DNA of 64,000 nucleotides from a bacterium (GTDB taxonomy: Bacteria; Patescibacteriota; Minisyncoccia; UBA6257; GWB1-50-10): contig JAJYXV010000003.1 in assembly GCA_021801565.1 (NCBI GenBank), positions 68,894 through 132,893 on the forward strand, read 5' to 3'. Positions 2,981 to 54,847 of this stretch are shown here, one piece after another. The notes below the pieces were generated by a model. That model ran no database searches. It was given only the letters and a program-made list of their open reading frames with translations, and had not been told where the DNA came from. The translations under genes were made by a program, and so were the position numbers. Each line of letters opens with the position of its first letter. The first letter of the stretch is position 1.

Positions 2981-3037
2981 CCCGCCCATGGCGGATAAGG
3001 CGAAGTGGCAGATTTAACCGCCTTTGGCGGTCGCACT

Positions 3038-3280
3038 ATGGAAGTAATAGTGTATTCAATAAAAAGTTTGAAAGATGGATATCGGTATGTCGGAATTACG
3101 AAAAATCTAGAAGATAGATTGAAGAGGCATAATGGGGGTCATAATATTAGTACCGCGTCCCACGCCCCATTTCAGTTGATTTATGAAGAAGTGTTTTCAT
3201 CTTATAACGATGCAAGAAAAAAAGAGAAATTTTTAAAAAGTGGAGTTGGACGAAAGTTTTTGGATACTTTAATATCTTAA
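3038..3280 (+). CDS. GIY-YIG nuclease domain protein (~80 aa)
   Basis: VYSIKSLKDGYRYVGITKNLEDRLKRHN is the GIY-(x10)-YVG...R...H signature. The ORF track starts at a GTG at 3005; the ATG at 3038 is more likely. Confidence 0.75.
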   Translation: MEVIVYSIKSLKDGYRYVGITKNLEDRLKRHNGGHNISTASHAPFQLIYEEVFSSYNDARKKEKFLKSGVGRKFLDTLIS

Positions 3281-3285
3281 GATAT

Positions 3286-3372
3286 GCGCGGGTGGCGAAA
3301 CTGGCAGACGCACTACCTTGAGGTGGTAGCGCCCGCAAGGGCTTGGAGGTTCAAATCCTCTCCCGCGCACCA
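3286..3372 (+). tRNA. tRNA-Leu (anticodon GAG), CCA encoded
   Basis: Acceptor GCGCGGG/CCCGCGC, anticodon loop ttGAGgt, long variable arm gcccgcaagggc, T-arm ggagg-ttcaaat-cctct, 3' ACCA. Confidence 0.85.
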
Positions 3373-3376
3373 GAAT

Positions 3377-3415
3377 ACAAAAGGAAAGAATTTTAATTCT
3401 TTCCTTTTGTATTTA
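3377..3415 (+). terminator. Rho-independent terminator after tRNA-Leu
   Basis: Perfect hairpin acaaaaggaaagaatt-ttaa-ttctttccttttgt followed by attta. Confidence 0.6.
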
Positions 3416-3437
3416 TAGATATGTGAAGGATTTGAAT

Positions 3438-3560
3438 GAGAAGGGGGTCGGGGGAACGGAAGTTTCCCCGTGTAAGAAAATACTAAAAACCGAGAGGTTG
3501 TTAGGGAGCGAAGCGACGTTCAAATCCTCCGCCAGAGGCGGACAAGTCTCCCGCGCACCG
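3438..3560 (+). ncRNA. Unclassified structured element A, paralogous to element B at 9283-9438, ending in a tRNA-Leu 3'-end-like sequence
   Basis: Shares AAGGGGGTCGGGG and AAACCG.GGG..T..TA.GGAG.GAAGCGA.G with 9283-9438. Its 3' part gttcaaatcctc...tctcccgcgcacc resembles the T-arm and acceptor 3' strand of the tRNA-Leu just upstream. Confidence 0.3.
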
Positions 3561-3625: not shown

Positions 3626-4768
3626 ATGAAGAAGAGTCAATTTATTGTTTTTGGTATTGTGCTTATAGTACTCTGTGTTGGAGGATATTTTGTCTTTTCG
3701 TACTTTGAAGAATGGCTCCCGTCTTCACCCACTTTTGATACATATAATCTCCCACCAAATTCCTCTACAACAGGAGATAATATTTCAGATAGTATGGTGA
3801 AAGATCCTTATGCAGGATGGAAAATATACACAAATGAAAAATATGGATACTCGATACATTACCCTGGAAATTGGTATGTCGACACGCGCTTTTCGAATAG
3901 AGATTTCAGCACGCGCGGAAGTGGTGATGTGATGGGCGGGGATACGCTGTTCGCAAATTACGAGAATGGCTATGATTACGACATTACGAATATGCCACGG
4001 GATTTCGATTCAATACAGCTTCTCATTTATAAAACCGATCCAAAGATTGTTTTTCTTGATGATTACGTGAAGACGATCAATTTTGTTGGGTTGTATACAA
4101 AAGAAGATATAATGATCCATGGCGTTCCGGGGCTCAAGCTTACCTTCAGTAAAGACAGAGAGCAGCCATCCGCGGATGCAGTAGTATTTTTAAAGATCAA
4201 TGATAGGGTGTTCAACTTCAGTATACGAGATTCCGCGATAAAAGAACTCATAACCAACTCCTTCCGTCCAAGCGAAAAAAATATGCTTCTTTTAAAACTC
4301 CTTAATCAGCATTTTCCTCCATTTGGAATAGTGGATACACCATTCGCATTTATAAACGGGGGATATAAATATTCATACTGTGGAGGAAAGATGCTTGGTG
4401 AAGAGGACTGCAAGAACAATCCAATATATCAAAATACAACAAGCATATATCTTGACGAAGGTGTGCTCTCGTTTGAAAAAACACAAAATGGGATATATTA
4501 TGTCGCAACGATCGTCACGTTCAATGCCGGAGGAACAGGTCAATATAAATATCTTGTCCTTTTGAACGGAACCCCCGATTCCGATCTTTCGTATGTCGCA
4601 AGTGTAGATCTTGGTGATAGGGTGCAAATACACAGTATCTCATTTTCCGAGGGGAAAATTGTTCTCGATATGAATATACATGGACCAAATGATGGACTAT
4701 GTTGTCCAAGTGTTCGTACAACGAAAATATTCGAATTACAGGGAGGAAATTTAATGGAAGTCCATTAA
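3626..4768 (+). CDS. Hypothetical secreted or membrane-anchored protein (380 aa)
   Basis: N-terminal TM/signal anchor FIVFGIVLIVLCVGGYFVF. No recognisable catalytic motif. A TGnTATAAT element lies 6 nt upstream of the ATG. Confidence 0.6.
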   Translation: MKKSQFIVFGIVLIVLCVGGYFVFSYFEEWLPSSPTFDTYNLPPNSSTTGDNISDSMVKDPYAGWKIYTNEKYGYSIHYPGNWYVDTRFSNRDFSTRGSGDVMGGDTLFANYENGYDYDITNMPRDFDSIQLLIYKTDPKIVFLDDYVKTINFVGLYTKEDIMIHGVPGLKLTFSKDREQPSADAVVFLKINDRVFNFSIRDSAIKELITNSFRPSEKNMLLLKLLNQHFPPFGIVDTPFAFINGGYKYSYCGGKMLGEEDCKNNPIYQNTTSIYLDEGVLSFEKTQNGIYYVATIVTFNAGGTGQYKYLVLLNGTPDSDLSYVASVDLGDRVQIHSISFSEGKIVLDMNIHGPNDGLCCPSVRTTKIFELQGGNLMEVH

Positions 4769-8805: not shown

Positions 8806-9234
8806 ATGGCAACAAAACCAATAAAAACAGTACTAAAACTTCAAATTGAAGCGGGGAAAGCGAATCCGGCACCGCCAATTGGACCGGCACTTGGTCAACA
8901 TGGAGTGAATATCCAGCAATTCTGTCAGCAGTTTAATGAGGCAACAAAGGATATGATGGGCGATATTGTTCCCGCTGAGATTACGATTTATCAAGACAGG
9001 ACATTTGATTTTAAATTAAAAACATCTCCTGCCTCGGCGCTACTTAGAAAGGCAGCAGGAATTCCGAAAGGCTCACCAATTCCTCATAAGCAAAAAGTAG
9101 GAAAAGTGACAAAAACACAACTTCGTGAGATTGCAGAGAAGAAAATGGTTGATTTGAATGCAAATGATGTAGAAGCAGCAATGAAAATTATTGAAGGAAG
9201 TGCCCGCAACATGGGAATTGAAATTATAGATTAG
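8806..9234 (+). CDS. rplK: 50S ribosomal protein L11
   Basis: [24 protein letters not shown] is the L11 signature. Confidence 0.95.
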
Positions 9235-9268
9235 AAAAAATCCTGCTTCTGGCAGGATTTTTTAATAT
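9235..9268 (+). terminator. Rho-independent terminator after rplK
   Basis: aaaaaatcctgc-ttct-ggcaggatttttt. Confidence 0.6.
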
Positions 9269-9282
9269 TTGAATTTTATGTT

Positions 9283-9438
9283 GCGGAAAGGGGGTCGGGG
9301 AAAAACAAATGTGTTTCCTCGTGAAGGAAATAGCCTGCTTTATGCGGGCGTTTAGAAACCGTGGGTTTCTAAGGAGTGAAGCGATGCAACATGGGTGTCA
9401 AAATCATTGATTAAAACCGCCTCTCAGGCGGTTTTTTT
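9283..9438 (+). ncRNA. Unclassified structured element B (paralog of A) with an 8-codon uORF (9384-9410) and an intrinsic terminator (9413-9438)
   Basis: Shares AAGGGGGTCGGGG and AAACCGTGGGTTTCTAAGGAGTGAAGCGATG with element A. It contains AAGGAG-N7-ATG CAA CAT GGG TGT CAA AAT CAT TGA, then aaaaccgcc-tctca-ggcggttttttt. Confidence 0.3.
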
Positions 9439-9509
9439 GTTTGACTTTATTTTTCTCTATGAGAGGATAAATATAGTTTTTATCATTAATATATAATGGA
9501 GGTAACATT

Positions 9510-10331
9510 ATGGAGAAGGGAAAATTTATTCTACTCGAAAGTTTAACGTGTGGCGGTAAGGGGAAGCAAGCGACGAGGTTAAAAAAATTTCTTGAATCGA
9601 AAGGTATCCCCGCACTCATATATGTTGAACCTACTCCGAGTAGTTCTGTTGGGAGGATGATACGAAAAATAATTGAGAAACAGGAAATCGGTGAAGCATT
9701 TGTACAGAATTCATTTATTCCTGAAGTACTCGGATATATTGTCGGCTTAGGTGTTTCGGGAGTTTTTCTGAAGGGACAGGAGTGTAACGACGTAGTGAAA
9801 GAATTTGCCGGATTGTTAAATGATGCGATGGTGAAAATAAAAAATCATAAAAAACTAACAAACCGTGAACTTCAGTCACTTTATGTGATGGATAGACATC
9901 TCGATCTTAGAGAAAATATTATTCCTGCTCTTAAAAAGGGGATATGGGTCATTCAAGATCGGTATGACAGAAGTACAATGGCATTTGGCGAGGCGTTTGG
10001 TGGGGTCACAATTGAGGAAGTTTATAAGTGGCACCTGCACGCGCTTGGGGAAGAATATATTCTTCCTGATTACGATTTTTTCATTCGCATCAAGCCTGAA
10101 ACCGCAATGAAACGTTTAGAGAAAGATGGAAAAATGAAAGATCAATTTGAGCAGAAACTCGACGGATTAAAGAAAACGGCGATGGCGTACGAAAAAGCGA
10201 CGTTGTTTGTGTGTAAGCAATACGCACTTCAAGATCCGCCAAGGGAATTCGTTATTGTTATAGATGGCGAACAGAGCGAACAGAAGGTGTTTGACGACAT
10301 AACAGAAAAAATGACTGAGGCTTTTTTATAA
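9510..10331 (+). CDS. Thymidylate/nucleoside-monophosphate kinase-like P-loop protein (273 aa)
   Basis: Degenerate P-loop LESLTCGGKGKQA and DRY-like VIQDRYDRSTMAFG. Longer than canonical Tmk. Confidence 0.5.
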   Translation: MEKGKFILLESLTCGGKGKQATRLKKFLESKGIPALIYVEPTPSSSVGRMIRKIIEKQEIGEAFVQNSFIPEVLGYIVGLGVSGVFLKGQECNDVVKEFAGLLNDAMVKIKNHKKLTNRELQSLYVMDRHLDLRENIIPALKKGIWVIQDRYDRSTMAFGEAFGGVTIEEVYKWHLHALGEEYILPDYDFFIRIKPETAMKRLEKDGKMKDQFEQKLDGLKKTAMAYEKATLFVCKQYALQDPPREFVIVIDGEQSEQKVFDDITEKMTEAFL

Positions 10332-28954: not shown

Positions 28955-28992
28955 CCCTCATTCTAATGTTCTCAAGAACATTAGAATGAGGG
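28955..28992. promoter_or_regulatory. 38-nt palindrome (18-bp arms, core AATGTTCTCAAGAACATT) overlapping the start region of the ArsR-like gene
   Basis: ccctcattctaatgttct-ca-agaacattagaatgaggg. Related copies at 29274-29299, 51964-52003 and 30513-30534. Confidence 0.45.
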
Positions 28993-29306
28993 GGGAGGAA
29001 AGTGATATAATAAAGAATATGAAAGGGGATGGGGGAAGGTCAAAGTTTTATACACTAGAAAAGATAATAAAAGGAGCAAGCAATCATCGAAGGGTTGAAA
29101 TTTTATACCTCTTAAAAGAAAAGCCAAATCTTTCGGTTTTCGATATATCGGAAAAATTAAAGTGTAATTTCAAGACTATTTCCGAACATACGCGTCGGTT
29201 GGTGCAATCTGGGTTGATTTCGAAATATTCTGATGGAAGCTCGGTTCGTCACGAAATTACTTTATTGGGGGAAAATGTTCTCAAGTTCTTGAGAACATTG
29301 GAATAA
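28986..29306 (+). CDS. ArsR/SmtB-family winged-helix transcriptional regulator
   Basis: HRRVEILYLLKEKPNLSVFDISEKL...TISEHTRRLVQSGLI is a helix-turn-helix of the ArsR type. The likely start is the Met at 29019, after a GGGGGAGGAAAG RBS. Confidence 0.6.
   Translation: MRGEESDIIKNMKGDGGRSKFYTLEKIIKGASNHRRVEILYLLKEKPNLSVFDISEKLKCNFKTISEHTRRLVQSGLISKYSDGSSVRHEITLLGENVLKFLRTLE
29274..29299. promoter_or_regulatory. Palindrome AATGTTCTCAAG-TT-CTTGAGAACATT at the 3' end of the ArsR-like gene, upstream of the methyltransferase gene
   Basis: 12-bp arms. Shares the half-site with 28955-28992 and 51964-52003. Confidence 0.4.
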
Positions 29307-49836: not shown

Positions 49837-49837
49837 G

Positions 49838-49899
49838 CTGCGGGACTAGGAGTCGGACCTAGATACCGGGATTCAAAGTCCCGTGTCCTACCATTAGAC
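49838..49899 (-). pseudogene. Partial tRNA-Gln copy (62 nt, D-arm to 3' end, no 5' acceptor strand), abutted by the palindrome CCTGCCTGCGCAGGCAGG
   Basis: Identical to nt 49951-50012 of the intact tRNA-Gln, but the 5' side reads gcaggcag instead of TGCGGGATC and cannot pair with the 3' acceptor strand. Confidence 0.5.
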
Positions 49900-49950
49900 C
49901 TGCCTGCGCAGGCAGGCGATCCTCAAATGAATATAAACTCTCGATCACAG

Positions 49951-50021
49951 CTGCGGGACTAGGAGTCGGACCTAGATACCGGGATTCAAAGTCCCGTGTC
50001 CTACCATTAGACGATCCCGCA
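49951..50021 (-). tRNA. tRNA-Gln (anticodon TTG), CCA not encoded, atypical T-loop TCCGACT
   Basis: Minus-strand reading: TGCGGGA-TC-GTCT-AATGGTA-GGAC-A-CGGGA-CTTTGAA-TCCCG-GTAT-CTAGG-TCCGACT-CCTAG-TCCCGCA-G. All stems pair. Position 55 is C rather than U. Confidence 0.7.
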
Positions 50022-51964: not shown

Positions 51965-52003
51965 ATAACATTCCAATGTTCTTGAGAACATTGGAATGTT
52001 ATT
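51964..52003. promoter_or_regulatory. 40-nt palindrome (core AATGTTCTTGAGAACATT, the reverse complement of the 28964 core) at the start of the 51976 gene
   Basis: aataacattccaatgttc-ttga-gaacattggaatgttatt, with 18-bp arms. Confidence 0.4.
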
Positions 52004-53830: not shown

Positions 53831-54847
53831 ATGAAATTATCAATTGGCATTGTAGGTCTTCCTAATGTGGGGAAATCAACGCTTTTTAAGGCTCTGACCG
53901 CACAGGAAGTGCATATCGCAAATTATCCGTTTGCGACGATTGATCCAAATGTAGGAGTAGTGCCAGTTCCTGATGAGCGGGTTGATGCACTTGCAAAATT
54001 AAGTAATTCAAAAAAGAAAGTTCCTGCAGTTGTCGAGTTTTACGATATTGCGGGACTTGTGAAAGGAGCAAATCAGGGTGAGGGATTGGGAAATCAATTT
54101 CTTTCGCACATTCGTGAATGCAAAGCGGTGGTGCAAGTGGTTCGCTGTTTTTCTTCGGGAGAAATTATTCATGTCGAAGGTAACACAAATCCAGAAAGAG
54201 ACATTGATATCATCAACACCGAGTTATTATTAAAAGATCTTGATACGATTGAGAAACGATATCACAAAGCAGAGTCGGAAGCGCGAAGCGGAAAAAAAGA
54301 AATGGTGGTGGTGCGGGATGCACTTAAAAAAATAAAAGATGAAATTGAAAAAGGGGTTCCTCTTTTCACGCTCCCAAATCATTCTGAAATTCTTGAAAGT
54401 ATTAAAATGATTGGAGATTTAGGATTATTAACTGCAAAGGCACAAATTTTTCTTTTAAACGGAAATGAAAGCGATGTAAGCGACGCACTCAAAGAAAAAA
54501 TAAAAAAGATGAACGCGGAGTATGTAATTGCCGATTTGAGTTCGGGAAATGCCATTCCGGAACTTATTAAGAGTGCATATAAAATTTTGGATCTTATGAG
54601 TTTTCTTACTACCGGAGAAGATGAAACACGTGCATGGACAATTGAGAGAGGATCAAAAGCACCACAAGCGGCAGGTACCATTCACACTGATTTTGAGCAG
54701 AAATTTATACGGGCTGAAGTTATTTCGTACGAAAAACTTGTGCAGGCGGGCGGATGGGTGCAGGCAAAACAAAAGGGCTGGTTACGCCTTGAGGGAAAAG
54801 ATTATATTGTACAGGACGGAGATGTAATGGTAATAAGACATGGATAA
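53831..54847 (+). CDS. ychF: Ribosome-binding ATPase YchF (Obg-like)
   Basis: GIVGLPNVGKSTLFKALT G1 motif, NYPFATIDPNVG, and a C-terminal TGS domain. Confidence 0.9.
   Translation: MKLSIGIVGLPNVGKSTLFKALTAQEVHIANYPFATIDPNVGVVPVPDERVDALAKLSNSKKKVPAVVEFYDIAGLVKGANQGEGLGNQFLSHIRECKAVVQVVRCFSSGEIIHVEGNTNPERDIDIINTELLLKDLDTIEKRYHKAESEARSGKKEMVVVRDALKKIKDEIEKGVPLFTLPNHSEILESIKMIGDLGLLTAKAQIFLLNGNESDVSDALKEKIKKMNAEYVIADLSSGNAIPELIKSAYKILDLMSFLTTGEDETRAWTIERGSKAPQAAGTIHTDFEQKFIRAEVISYEKLVQAGGWVQAKQKGWLRLEGKDYIVQDGDVMVIRHG

Follow-up and report, generated by a model that had tools for sequence, protein, structure and literature searches.

A non-coding cassette of Patescibacteria with a structured core set between antisense and direct copies of the 3' end of its upstream gene

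What are two similar intergenic segments, one behind a tRNA gene and the other behind a ribosomal protein gene, doing about 6 kb apart in the genome of one member of the Patescibacteriota? The question is raised by a stretch of 64,000 nucleotides (hereafter the window) of contig JAJYXV010000003.1 (assembly GCA_021801565.1, positions 68,894 to 132,893 of the forward strand), in which a sequence-only reading had noted two elements, A and B, with two collinear conserved blocks. The shared blocks are real. The exact 13-mer AAGGGGGTCGGGG is common to A (3441–3453) and B (9288–9300), GGAGNGAAGCGANG is present at 3505–3518 and 9373–9386, and in the pairwise alignment the blocks between the shared motifs are collinear. 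With up to two mismatches, AAGGGGGTCGGGG occurs four times in the window against 0.59 expected by chance, and four occurrences were reached in no shuffle. A covariance model (CM) built from homologues of other genomes recognised A (3427–3533, 88.5 bits, E ~1e-20) as well as B (9272–9401, 76.3 bits, E ~1e-17), and its scan of the 64-kb window gave no third copy, the next best match scoring 12.9 bits. The context had also been read correctly, with A lying behind tRNA-Leu(GAG) and B behind rplK, ahead of a kinase gene, which is that of thymidylate kinase.

The relation of both elements to the gene upstream had been overlooked. The 3' end of A duplicates the tail of the tRNA-Leu and that of B the final 8 codons with the stop of rplK, and the 5' flanks of both are antisense to those tails. 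The unit, called here a cassette, consists in the 5' to 3' direction of an antisense arm ('anti'), a conserved core of 75–100 nt and a direct copy of the tail of the upstream (host) gene, often with a terminator. The coordinates are collected in Table 1, in which DR1 and DR2 stand for the two direct repeats (the host's own tail and its copy) and P1 to P4 for helices. The limits first given to the elements (3438–3560 and 9283–9438) fall on real elements but are too narrow, as the arms extend A to 3423–3559 and B to 9268–9438. The CCGCC..GGCGG hairpin with which both had been thought to end proved to be a coincidence of non-homologous parts: in A (3530–3542) it has a loop of 3 nt, not 4–5, and sits inside a 19-nt insertion in the copied tRNA tail, and in B (9413–9438) it is the intrinsic terminator.

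Table 1. Features of cassettes A and B and of their host genes in the window.
Feature	Position	Strand	Basis or remark
tRNA-Leu(GAG), host of A, intact	3286..3372	+	Rfam tRNA, 48.8 bits; ARAGORN
DR1 of A, the tRNA's own tail TTCAAATCCTCTCCCGCGCACC (T-loop, T-stem 3' strand, acceptor 3' strand, discriminator, CC)	3350..3371	+	recurs at 3518–3529 and 3549–3559
13-bp trailer hairpin in the gap between tRNA and cassette A, terminator-like	3379..3408	+	sequence; terminator scan made no call
'Anti' arm of A, GTGAAGGATTTGAATG, antisense to the tRNA T-loop and T-stem 3' strand; 5' strand of P1	3423..3438	+	
Core of A: AAGGGGGUC, P2 hairpin 3449–3470, J GUGUAAGAAA, P4 hairpin 3483–3504, GGGAGCGAAGCGAC	3441..3517	+	CM hit; structure, covariation
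DR2 of A, direct copy of the tRNA-Leu tail, split by a 19-nt hairpin insertion at 3530–3548; 3' strand of P1 and single-stranded acceptor-strand tail	3518..3559	+	
rplK (ribosomal protein L11), host of B, intact	8806..9234	+	homologues carry PF03946, PF00298
DR1 of B, final 8 rplK codons and stop, GCAACATGGGAATTGAAATTATAGATTAG (NMGIEIID-stop)	9206..9234	+	
T1, hairpin and T-run behind rplK	9235..9263	+	homologous to the terminator behind rplK in L118 (empty site) and L117
'Anti' arm of B, TTTGAATTTTATGTTGCGG, antisense to rplK CCGCAACATGGGAATTGAA	9268..9286	+	
Core of B: P2 9296–9321, optional P3 9333–9349, P4 9352–9372, AGGAGUGAAGCGAU	9287..9385	+	CM hit
DR2 of B, diverged direct copy of the rplK tail, GCAACATGGGTGTCAAAATCATTGATTAA, in frame with stop (NMGVKIID-stop)	9386..9414	+	
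T2, intrinsic terminator closing cassette B	9413..9438	+	terminator scan: 10-bp stem and T-run
Thymidylate kinase gene (tmk), downstream of B	9510..10331		

A scan of GTDB species genomes with the pattern AAGGGGGTC-N50-80-GGAGNGAAGCGA matched at least 80 loci. Among the matches listed about 38 were clear homologues, the remainder being chance matches and a second, different family, and a metagenome scan supplied 36 further loci. The covariance model, built from 34 sequences, gave 77 matches at 45–97 bits, 64 of them distinct, over all collected loci (designated below by L and a number). Nearly all homologues come from metagenome-assembled genomes (MAGs) of Patescibacteria, the candidate phyla radiation (CPR), including Saccharibacteria, Parcubacteria/Paceibacterota, Kaiser-, Staskawicz-, Moran- and Berkelbacteria. 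The cores of A and B are 63% identical, and each is nearer to copies from other CPR classes than to the other. The best explanation is that A and B are old, diverged members of one Patescibacteria-wide family of non-coding cassettes.

No known RNA family was recognised in the elements, as had been judged by eye. Comparison of both segments with Rfam gave nothing at the gathering threshold; with Rfam 15 the whole window yielded four tRNA hits only at that threshold, and at E ≤10 A and B returned only terminator-type or spurious hits of at most 34 bits, all below gathering. ARAGORN found no tmRNA. The tRNA-like 3' flank and the G-runs had prompted comparison by eye with the topologies of tmRNA, two-piece tmRNA, signal recognition particle (SRP) RNA, Y RNA, T-box and hepatitis delta virus (HDV)-like or hairpin ribozymes; these were rejected on the negative ARAGORN and Rfam results and are also disfavoured by the many copies with host-specific arms. 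An HDV-type pseudoknot was discarded because a GGAG/CUCC change in L074 supports a plain P2 hairpin instead. Group I introns in the tRNAs of Patescibacteria sit in the anticodon loop and are unrelated (PMC13011429). Searches of open-access text with motif strings and descriptive terms found no described counterpart.

The same fold of the core on the sense strand emerges from RNAalifold and from the model alignment: a three-way junction with helices Pa (GUCG/CGAC), P2 (CGGGGAAA/UUUCCCCG) and Pb (CGU/GCG), a distal P4 and an optional P3. P2 (GGGAAA/UUUCCC) is a sequence-conserved hairpin, Pb contains a conserved U.G pair, the single-stranded stretches AAGGGG, G.AGGAAA and (A/G)GGA...AAG are invariant, and the closing helix P1 is made by 'anti' and the copied tail. 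The share of paired cells over the 64 distinct sequences is 96.1%; column shuffles give 89.0% and slid partners 42–55%. Both sides change in 12 of 21 pairs (7 of 8 in P4, 4 of 6 in P2), with one compensatory A-U in Pb. The observed pairing and covariation values were reached by none of 500 shuffles, and although the alignment was fitted to the model, which favours structure, a MAFFT alignment shows the same compensations. The U.G pair of Pb is kept in 57 of the 64 sequences and would read A.C on the opposite strand, so the functional form is most likely an RNA of the + (host-sense) strand. The further copies, recovered by the search of other genomes that the sequence-only reading had suggested, the covariation-backed fold and the lack of an Rfam family together uphold its proposal of a paralogous structured non-coding family.

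Interrupted cores were also encountered. At L074 (5146–6650) the cassette follows tRNA-Ser, and its P2 loop is occupied by a 1.3-kb island with two ORFs (open reading frames; 172 and 181 aa). The island stands between direct repeats of some 100 bp, which take in the end of the tRNA, the trailer, 'anti' and the initial 20 nt of the core. In L042 and L071 a GAGCGAAGCGAG-rich nested insert is found in the 3' strand of the core, between GGAGCG and GAGCGAC.

Every identified host lies upstream of its cassette and on the same strand. In the first set 16 copies stood 30–75 nt behind a same-strand tRNA gene, and among 49 distinct copies, those at contig ends being left out, 24 have a tRNA gene within 260 nt upstream, representing 12 amino-acid types. 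At tRNA hosts the 3' flank repeats the tail of that very tRNA, from the T-loop or the 3' strand of the T-stem through the 3' strand of the acceptor stem to the discriminator, and the 5' flank carries the T-loop and the 3' strand of the T-stem in reverse complement. Protein hosts follow the same plan, with a 3' flank repeating the last codons and the stop. They are rpsI (L008, L013, L047, L104, L106 and L112), rplK (window B, L079, L117 and L121), at a single locus each gyrB (L030), gapA (L041), the L33 gene rpmG (L080) and the L18 gene rplR (L103), and further the genes of an MraY-type transferase (L014), a Mur ligase (L116) and an S41 peptidase (L071), and recR (L109). When the 3' flank was compared with its own upstream 190 nt, 38 of the 49 copies reached a direct repeat score of at least 24, against 21 of 292 cross-pairings. 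DR2 begins 0–4 nt past ...GAAGCGAC in 27 copies, the tail repeat is 20–95 nt long, and 'anti' is antisense to the start of that tail. No tail repeat was detectable in L094, behind the L5 gene rplE, and no host was detectable for L005, L070, L087 and L093.

Some copied tRNA tails are modified in their T-loop part. GNRA-type hairpins (UAGCGAAGCG, UAACGAAGUG, UAGGCCGAAGGCCG) are inserted there at different hosts (L025, L061, L069, L078, L089 and L102), and in another subgroup GUGAGAU takes this place, so that P1 contains tandem G.A pairs. The window also has a duplicated tail that lacks the conserved core. On its minus strand (49837–50021), tRNA-Gln (49950–50021) and, about 40 nt further downstream, a second copy truncated at the 5' end (49838–49908; Rfam tRNA, 40 bits) have a 63-nt perfect repeat in common, and the hairpin CCTGCCTGCGCAGGCAGG precedes the second copy. 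Hairpins of the same type, CCTGCC..GGCAGG, recur elsewhere, as an insertion within the copied tail at L073 and ahead of the cassette at L097 and L109.

The constancy of the upstream partner bears on the suggestion that the element is a regulatory leader of the downstream gene. The genes downstream vary (tmk, the atp operon, grpE-dnaK, rpsN, hypotheticals) and a terminator often lies 3' of the element; the cassette is not a 5' leader. No sigma-70-like promoter was found ahead of A or B, and many copies have no terminator from the host stop codon to 'anti'. Together with the same-strand position of the hosts, this suggests that the cassette would be transcribed as the trailer or 3' untranslated region (UTR) of its host, or by read-through where a first terminator exists. 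It could be supposed instead that the cassette is an independent gene for a trans-acting small RNA (sRNA), a decoy or antisense regulator of the host transcript, which would have borrowed its 3' part and terminator through local duplication of the host tail. Cassettes usually finish in a terminator of their own (window B, L008, L009, L013, L080, L106 and L112), the repeat often spans the host terminator, with two terminators that have diverged in sequence and both remain a hairpin with a T-run (L008, L069, L080, L106, L112, L114 and window B), and L113 has a promoter-like site, TTGATT-16-TAAAAT with an upstream TG, about 40 nt ahead of the core. However, in most copies the interval from host to 'anti' offers neither the space nor the signal for a promoter, promoter-like matches are at chance level, and in cis the copied tail would largely mask 'anti', which makes an sRNA gene improbable.

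The antisense arm can pair with the copied tail, forming P1, or, at least as well, with the real tail upstream. Helices of 'anti' with the real tail scored 29.3 on average (shuffled arms 16.6) and those with the copy 22.0 (shuffled arms 13.4). The corresponding scores are 23.5 and 29.5 for A (shuffles 16.1 and 12.4) and 30.0 and 23.0 for B (shuffles ~16 and ~13.5). Extreme cases of pairing with the real tail are L080 (19 bp), L104 (12 bp) and L121, whose 21-bp hairpin holds the stop codon in the loop. The inversion of the arm is real and no effect of the palindrome TTCGAA, since non-palindromic loops are also inverted in the 5' arm: TTCAAAT becomes ATTTGAA (window, L039), TCCGATT becomes AATCGGA (L024) and TTCAAGT becomes ACTTGAA (L009). 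A target-site duplication of a palindromic T-loop was rejected because these loops appear inverted, not direct, and an origin of 'anti' from P-nucleotides or hairpin opening because non-palindromic loops lie between the inverted copy and the tail. In L024 'anti' tracks the unusual T-loop of the host tRNA (TCCGATT), and the copy retains TTCGACT.

Such alternative pairing could mean that the cassette is a switch selected by the host. 'Anti' would toggle between the real host tail (the T-arm of a pre-tRNA or the stop region of an mRNA) and the decoy copy, and the core would close on the anti:decoy helix and bind a common metabolite or protein signal. In regulator-poor organisms this would link the signal to whether tRNAs, ribosomal-protein mRNAs and transcripts of other growth genes mature or remain stable. 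The possibility deserves serious attention, even if it is an unlikely one. It agrees with the three mutually exclusive pairing partners and the strength of the anti:real-tail helix, which at least equals that of anti:copy, with the behaviour of the L024 arm, with the highly conserved, aptamer-like junction core and its covarying peripheral helices, with hosts that are nearly all translation or growth genes, and with long-term retention at orthologous sites. Nevertheless, a terminator-like hairpin splits host from cassette in A, B and several others, with the consequence that most host transcripts may never contain 'anti'. Close relatives manage without the cassette, decayed, truncated and tandem copies are typical of selfish DNA, the copied tail, with its stop codon and terminator, is much longer than pairing requires, and no ligand or gene-function logic points to one signal. 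The resemblance to riboswitches and attenuators is of the same mixed kind: the conserved junction core, the variable closing P1 and the P1 strand with an alternative partner are common to both, as is an aptamer-like core with covarying helices, whereas the cassette lies at the 3' end of the gene to which it is linked, has no association with a conserved downstream gene and occurs in polymorphic, tandem or decayed copies.

The copied tails of protein hosts retain traces of coding sequence. All tRNA hosts were called complete and all protein hosts have their own stop upstream of the cassette. Real and copied protein tails (two spurious ORF calls and L041 left out) differ by 32 synonymous and 14 non-synonymous codons, a synonymous share of 70% against about 40% if the real tail were under purifying selection and the copy drifted freely, and the position of the stop codon is usually kept. 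The differences are wholly synonymous in L121 (MGIEIE-stop in both tails), L013 (PQWSKR-stop in both, with five synonymous or stop changes) and L104. In L014 there are nine synonymous and three conservative changes, and the mosaic repeat of L030 is identical over its first 55 nt and then carries six synonymous changes and one V-to-I. The reading frame of the copied tail is lost in L079 and L008. Copies may sometimes be under protein-level selection, or the two copies may descend from different alleles, as would arise if homologous recombination, in the gene body at one end and in the copied tail at the other, carried the cassette between lineages.

Another reading is a ribozyme akin to an intron or a trans-splicing RNA. 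In this case 'anti' would be an internal guide, the core a tiny catalytic RNA and the copied tail a replacement 3' exon, so that the host body would be joined to the copy. The trans-splicing group I ribozymes that Sullenger and Cech are said to have engineered in 1994 have the same layout of guide, core and 3' exon. The cassette shares with group I and II introns and with the engineered ribozymes a guide beside a structured core followed by target-derived 3' sequence, as well as conserved housekeeping sites and a homing-like distribution. The sharp, constant junction ...GAAGCGAC/tail, the retained frame and stop with their synonymous excess, and junction nucleotides as invariant as those of catalytic cores, a hint at the level of sequence, would fit as well. 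On the other hand, with all examined hosts complete upstream of the cassette splicing would never be needed, the host is never interrupted, and the guide pairs with the downstream, tail side. Many tRNA-tail copies have part of the T-loop replaced by GUGAGAU or a small hairpin and would give a defective tRNA, and DR2 of rplK in the window carries the non-conservative E-to-K. A core of 75–100 nt is much smaller than any known self-splicing intron, and Rfam gave no match to a known ribozyme family and no intron hit, neither for a group I core (P3–P9 with the G-binding site) nor for domains I–VI of group II. A ribozyme of this type is considered quite unlikely.

Among related genomes the cassette is present in some and absent from others. 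RplK of the window is 85–96% identical to proteins labelled Jorgensenbacteria or Paceibacterota. Among close relatives of the window genome the rplK site is filled in the window itself, L117 (RplK 96%) and L121 (89%) and empty in L118 (96%), L119 (93%), L120 (93%) and L122 (87%), which have only rplK, the terminator and the next promoter. T1 of the window with 13 further nt matches the terminator region of the empty L118 site, and the surplus of the window over that site consists of 'anti', core, copied tail and second hairpin. The idea that the L119 terminator is a retained T2 was ruled out by positional homology. Cores 95–99% identical to each other are found at unrelated hosts, namely tRNA-Leu(UAA) (L102), the Mur ligase gene (L116), tRNA-Arg (L025), recR (L109) and the promoter-like site of L113, whereas rpsI-hosted cores are only 61–85% identical to each other. 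L109 and L113 have the entire downstream flank in common and differ upstream of 'anti'. Tandem arrays of anti-core-tail units are present in L045, L112 and L121, and decayed copies and nested insertions occur.

One further candidate array was set apart. In L041 (5900–6100) a perfect 80-nt tail repeat behind gapA runs into a second partial cassette and then into a 100-N scaffold gap; either a tandem array or a repeat-induced error of the assembly may lie behind this. With the gap lying inside a tandem repeat, the perfect 80-nt repeat was not accepted as proof of recent insertion.

Insertion next to 3'-end repeats could also be read as the relic of attachment sites of integrase-driven islands, with the core as island-end sequence. 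Integrase islands classically leave direct repeats of the 3' part of a tRNA that begin at the T-loop and run to the 3' end, and phages e14 or 21 in icd provide replacement protein 3' ends with synonymous differences. The cassette resembles both in its intact host, in the second copy of the 3' end beyond the insert, in the T-loop-to-3'-end repeat of tRNAs and in protein copies that differ mostly synonymously. A 3'-end direct repeat is indeed found on both sides of the insert, but the whole insert is only about 110–250 bp long, contains neither integrase (or other recombinase) gene nor ORF and has no fixed target. One core is found at more than 20 hosts with matching, host-specific arms, which a fixed attP cannot achieve, and the additional antisense copy of the tail and the covarying fold would be left unaccounted for. 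Relic attachment sites are thus scarcely credible.

The reading tentatively preferred here, though it is held with reserve, is that of a non-coding, mobile, selfish or semi-domesticated RNA cassette residing in the trailers or 3' UTRs of highly expressed genes. The tail copy would keep the essential host gene intact and at the same time provide conserved host sequence on both sides, through which the cassette could be transferred between genomes by homologous recombination, a form of homing without an endonuclease. New hosts would be gained occasionally by a tail-copying step. The core is predicted to be a functional module at the RNA level, whether catalytic, protein-binding or ligand-binding.

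Several observations weigh against the mobile cassette. Transposase, integrase and reverse transcriptase (RT) genes were not seen beside cassettes: the neighbours of rplK in L117–L122 are gyrB, secE, nusG, tmk and gatB, and those of the cassettes in the window, likewise without RT, are a GIY-YIG ORF, an ORF (3626–4768, downstream of A) with no Pfam match, which the sequence-only reading had taken for a secreted-protein gene, and tmk. Nothing matched in phage, plasmid and IMG/VR collections. The core-tail junction shows no microhomology, with zero extension in 22 of 27 copies, and microhomology-mediated template switching at that point was rejected on this ground. The proposal does not account for the origin of a new host-specific antisense arm. 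Pairs of the G.U kind are not significantly in excess over A.C in the arms (17:15 and 18:9, with a scoring that treats G.U and A.C alike), so the arms alone do not prove selection at the RNA level. DR2 of rplK in the window has the E-to-K change at a Glu invariant in 33 of 35 relatives; the coding-type signal is therefore not universal. Finally, conservation of the core across the classes of CPR is very strong and the cassette has stayed at the same sites, rpsI in six lineages and tRNA-Leu(GAG) in Saccharibacteria and in Paceibacteria-like genomes, a pattern which a function for the host fits at least as well as selfishness.

The way in which a tail might be copied is touched on by the ends of the repeat, which tends to stop where the host RNA stops, at the mature tRNA 3' end or the terminator T-run. 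As the hosts are the most abundant RNAs of the cell, this hints at an RNA-templated step, and no RT is linked among the rplK-locus genes of L117–L122. Taken further, the cassette could be a new RNA-based mobile element, that is, a minimal catalytic or RT-recruiting RNA. It would recognise the 3' ends of abundant host RNAs (tRNAs, ribosomal-protein mRNAs) by its antisense guide, be linked to a tail copy and return to the genome just behind the host gene. Such a natural 'tail-swapping' or trans-splicing-like ribozyme, or bacterial counterpart of a short interspersed element (SINE-like retro-cassette), is a doubtful proposition.

Retroelements with host-derived sequence offer partial parallels. 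The HDV-like ribozyme of the R2 retrotransposon is co-transcribed with 28S rRNA, and its P1 can include host rRNA sequence. Like R2, the cassette would be a mobile element expressed only within a highly expressed host transcript and has host-derived sequence in a helix, but it has no RT or ORF, folds differently, is bacterial, and duplicates the tail of its host instead of interrupting the gene. Diversity-generating retroelements (DGRs), common in CPR, have template and variable repeats (TR/VR) at the 3' end of the target gene. They share with the cassette a repeat of the gene 3' end just downstream, beside a structured non-coding RNA, in the same phylum. The cassette differs in its tRNA and housekeeping hosts, its short repeats of 20–95 nt, its antisense arm and the absence of RT or Avd nearby (rplK loci L117–L122 and window neighbours). 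Adenine-specific mismatches typical of DGRs were not seen between real and copied tails, the differences being of all types, in both directions and mostly at synonymous third positions. The conserved terminal inverted repeats and fixed short duplication of miniature inverted-repeat transposable elements (MITEs) and insertion sequences (IS) were not found either, as the arms are host-specific and the repeats differ in length. A closing helix recalls retrons, but the rplK loci L117–L122 lack an RT, and nothing like an msd template separates the core from the 3' arm. For every class that could be compared a defining feature was thus missing, be it a recombinase or RT, a fixed target, an intron core, an interrupted host, adenine mismatches, terminal repeats or an Rfam match, and the organisation of the cassette had no match in Rfam or in the open-access literature searched.

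If the anatomy holds, the cassette is a very widespread, conserved RNA of the CPR that is absent from RNA catalogues, and a core whose closing helix consists of inverted and direct copies of the 3' end of the neighbouring gene is an organisation not found described. Should the mobile reading be true, it would represent a new class of non-autonomous elements that spare essential hosts and carry their own homology arms. A switch would instead be an RNA device through which organisms with a minimal set of regulators place tRNA and ribosomal-protein transcripts under one shared signal. For annotation, copied tails can resemble pseudo-tRNA fragments or short spurious ORFs, and they can confuse assembly.

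The second family met in the pattern scan occurs in non-CPR MAGs (Aminicenantes, Clostridia-like and others; L004, L010, L016, L018, L026, L029, L054, L062 and L063). Its element is conserved over about 230 nt, has a variable, covarying outer stem of up to 22 bp and embeds the AAGGGGGUC-hairpin-...-GGAGCGAAGCGA module that is also present in the CPR cassettes. It scores just 15–25 bits with the CPR model and gave no Rfam hit and no host-tail repeat; it may be a distant relative of the CPR core inside a larger RNA.

A 91-aa ORF with a GIY-YIG nuclease domain (3005–3280) lies directly upstream of the tRNA-Leu that hosts A. As a mobility factor it was rejected, since it adjoins the cassette in only three loci (the window, L091 and L101) of about 60, and it is probably not part of the cassette system. 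At the other site, rplK is followed in the lineage of the window by tmk and not by rplA, and the order gyrB-secE-nusG-rplK-tmk-gatB is conserved in relatives (window 8806–10331, L117–L121). Elsewhere in the window, a 27-nt near-perfect palindrome, TTCCAATGTTCTTGAGAACATTGGAAT, is present in four copies of 74–100% identity (28961–28987, 29278–29304, 51971–51997 and 54382–54408) and resembles an operator or a repeat of the repetitive extragenic palindromic (REP) type.

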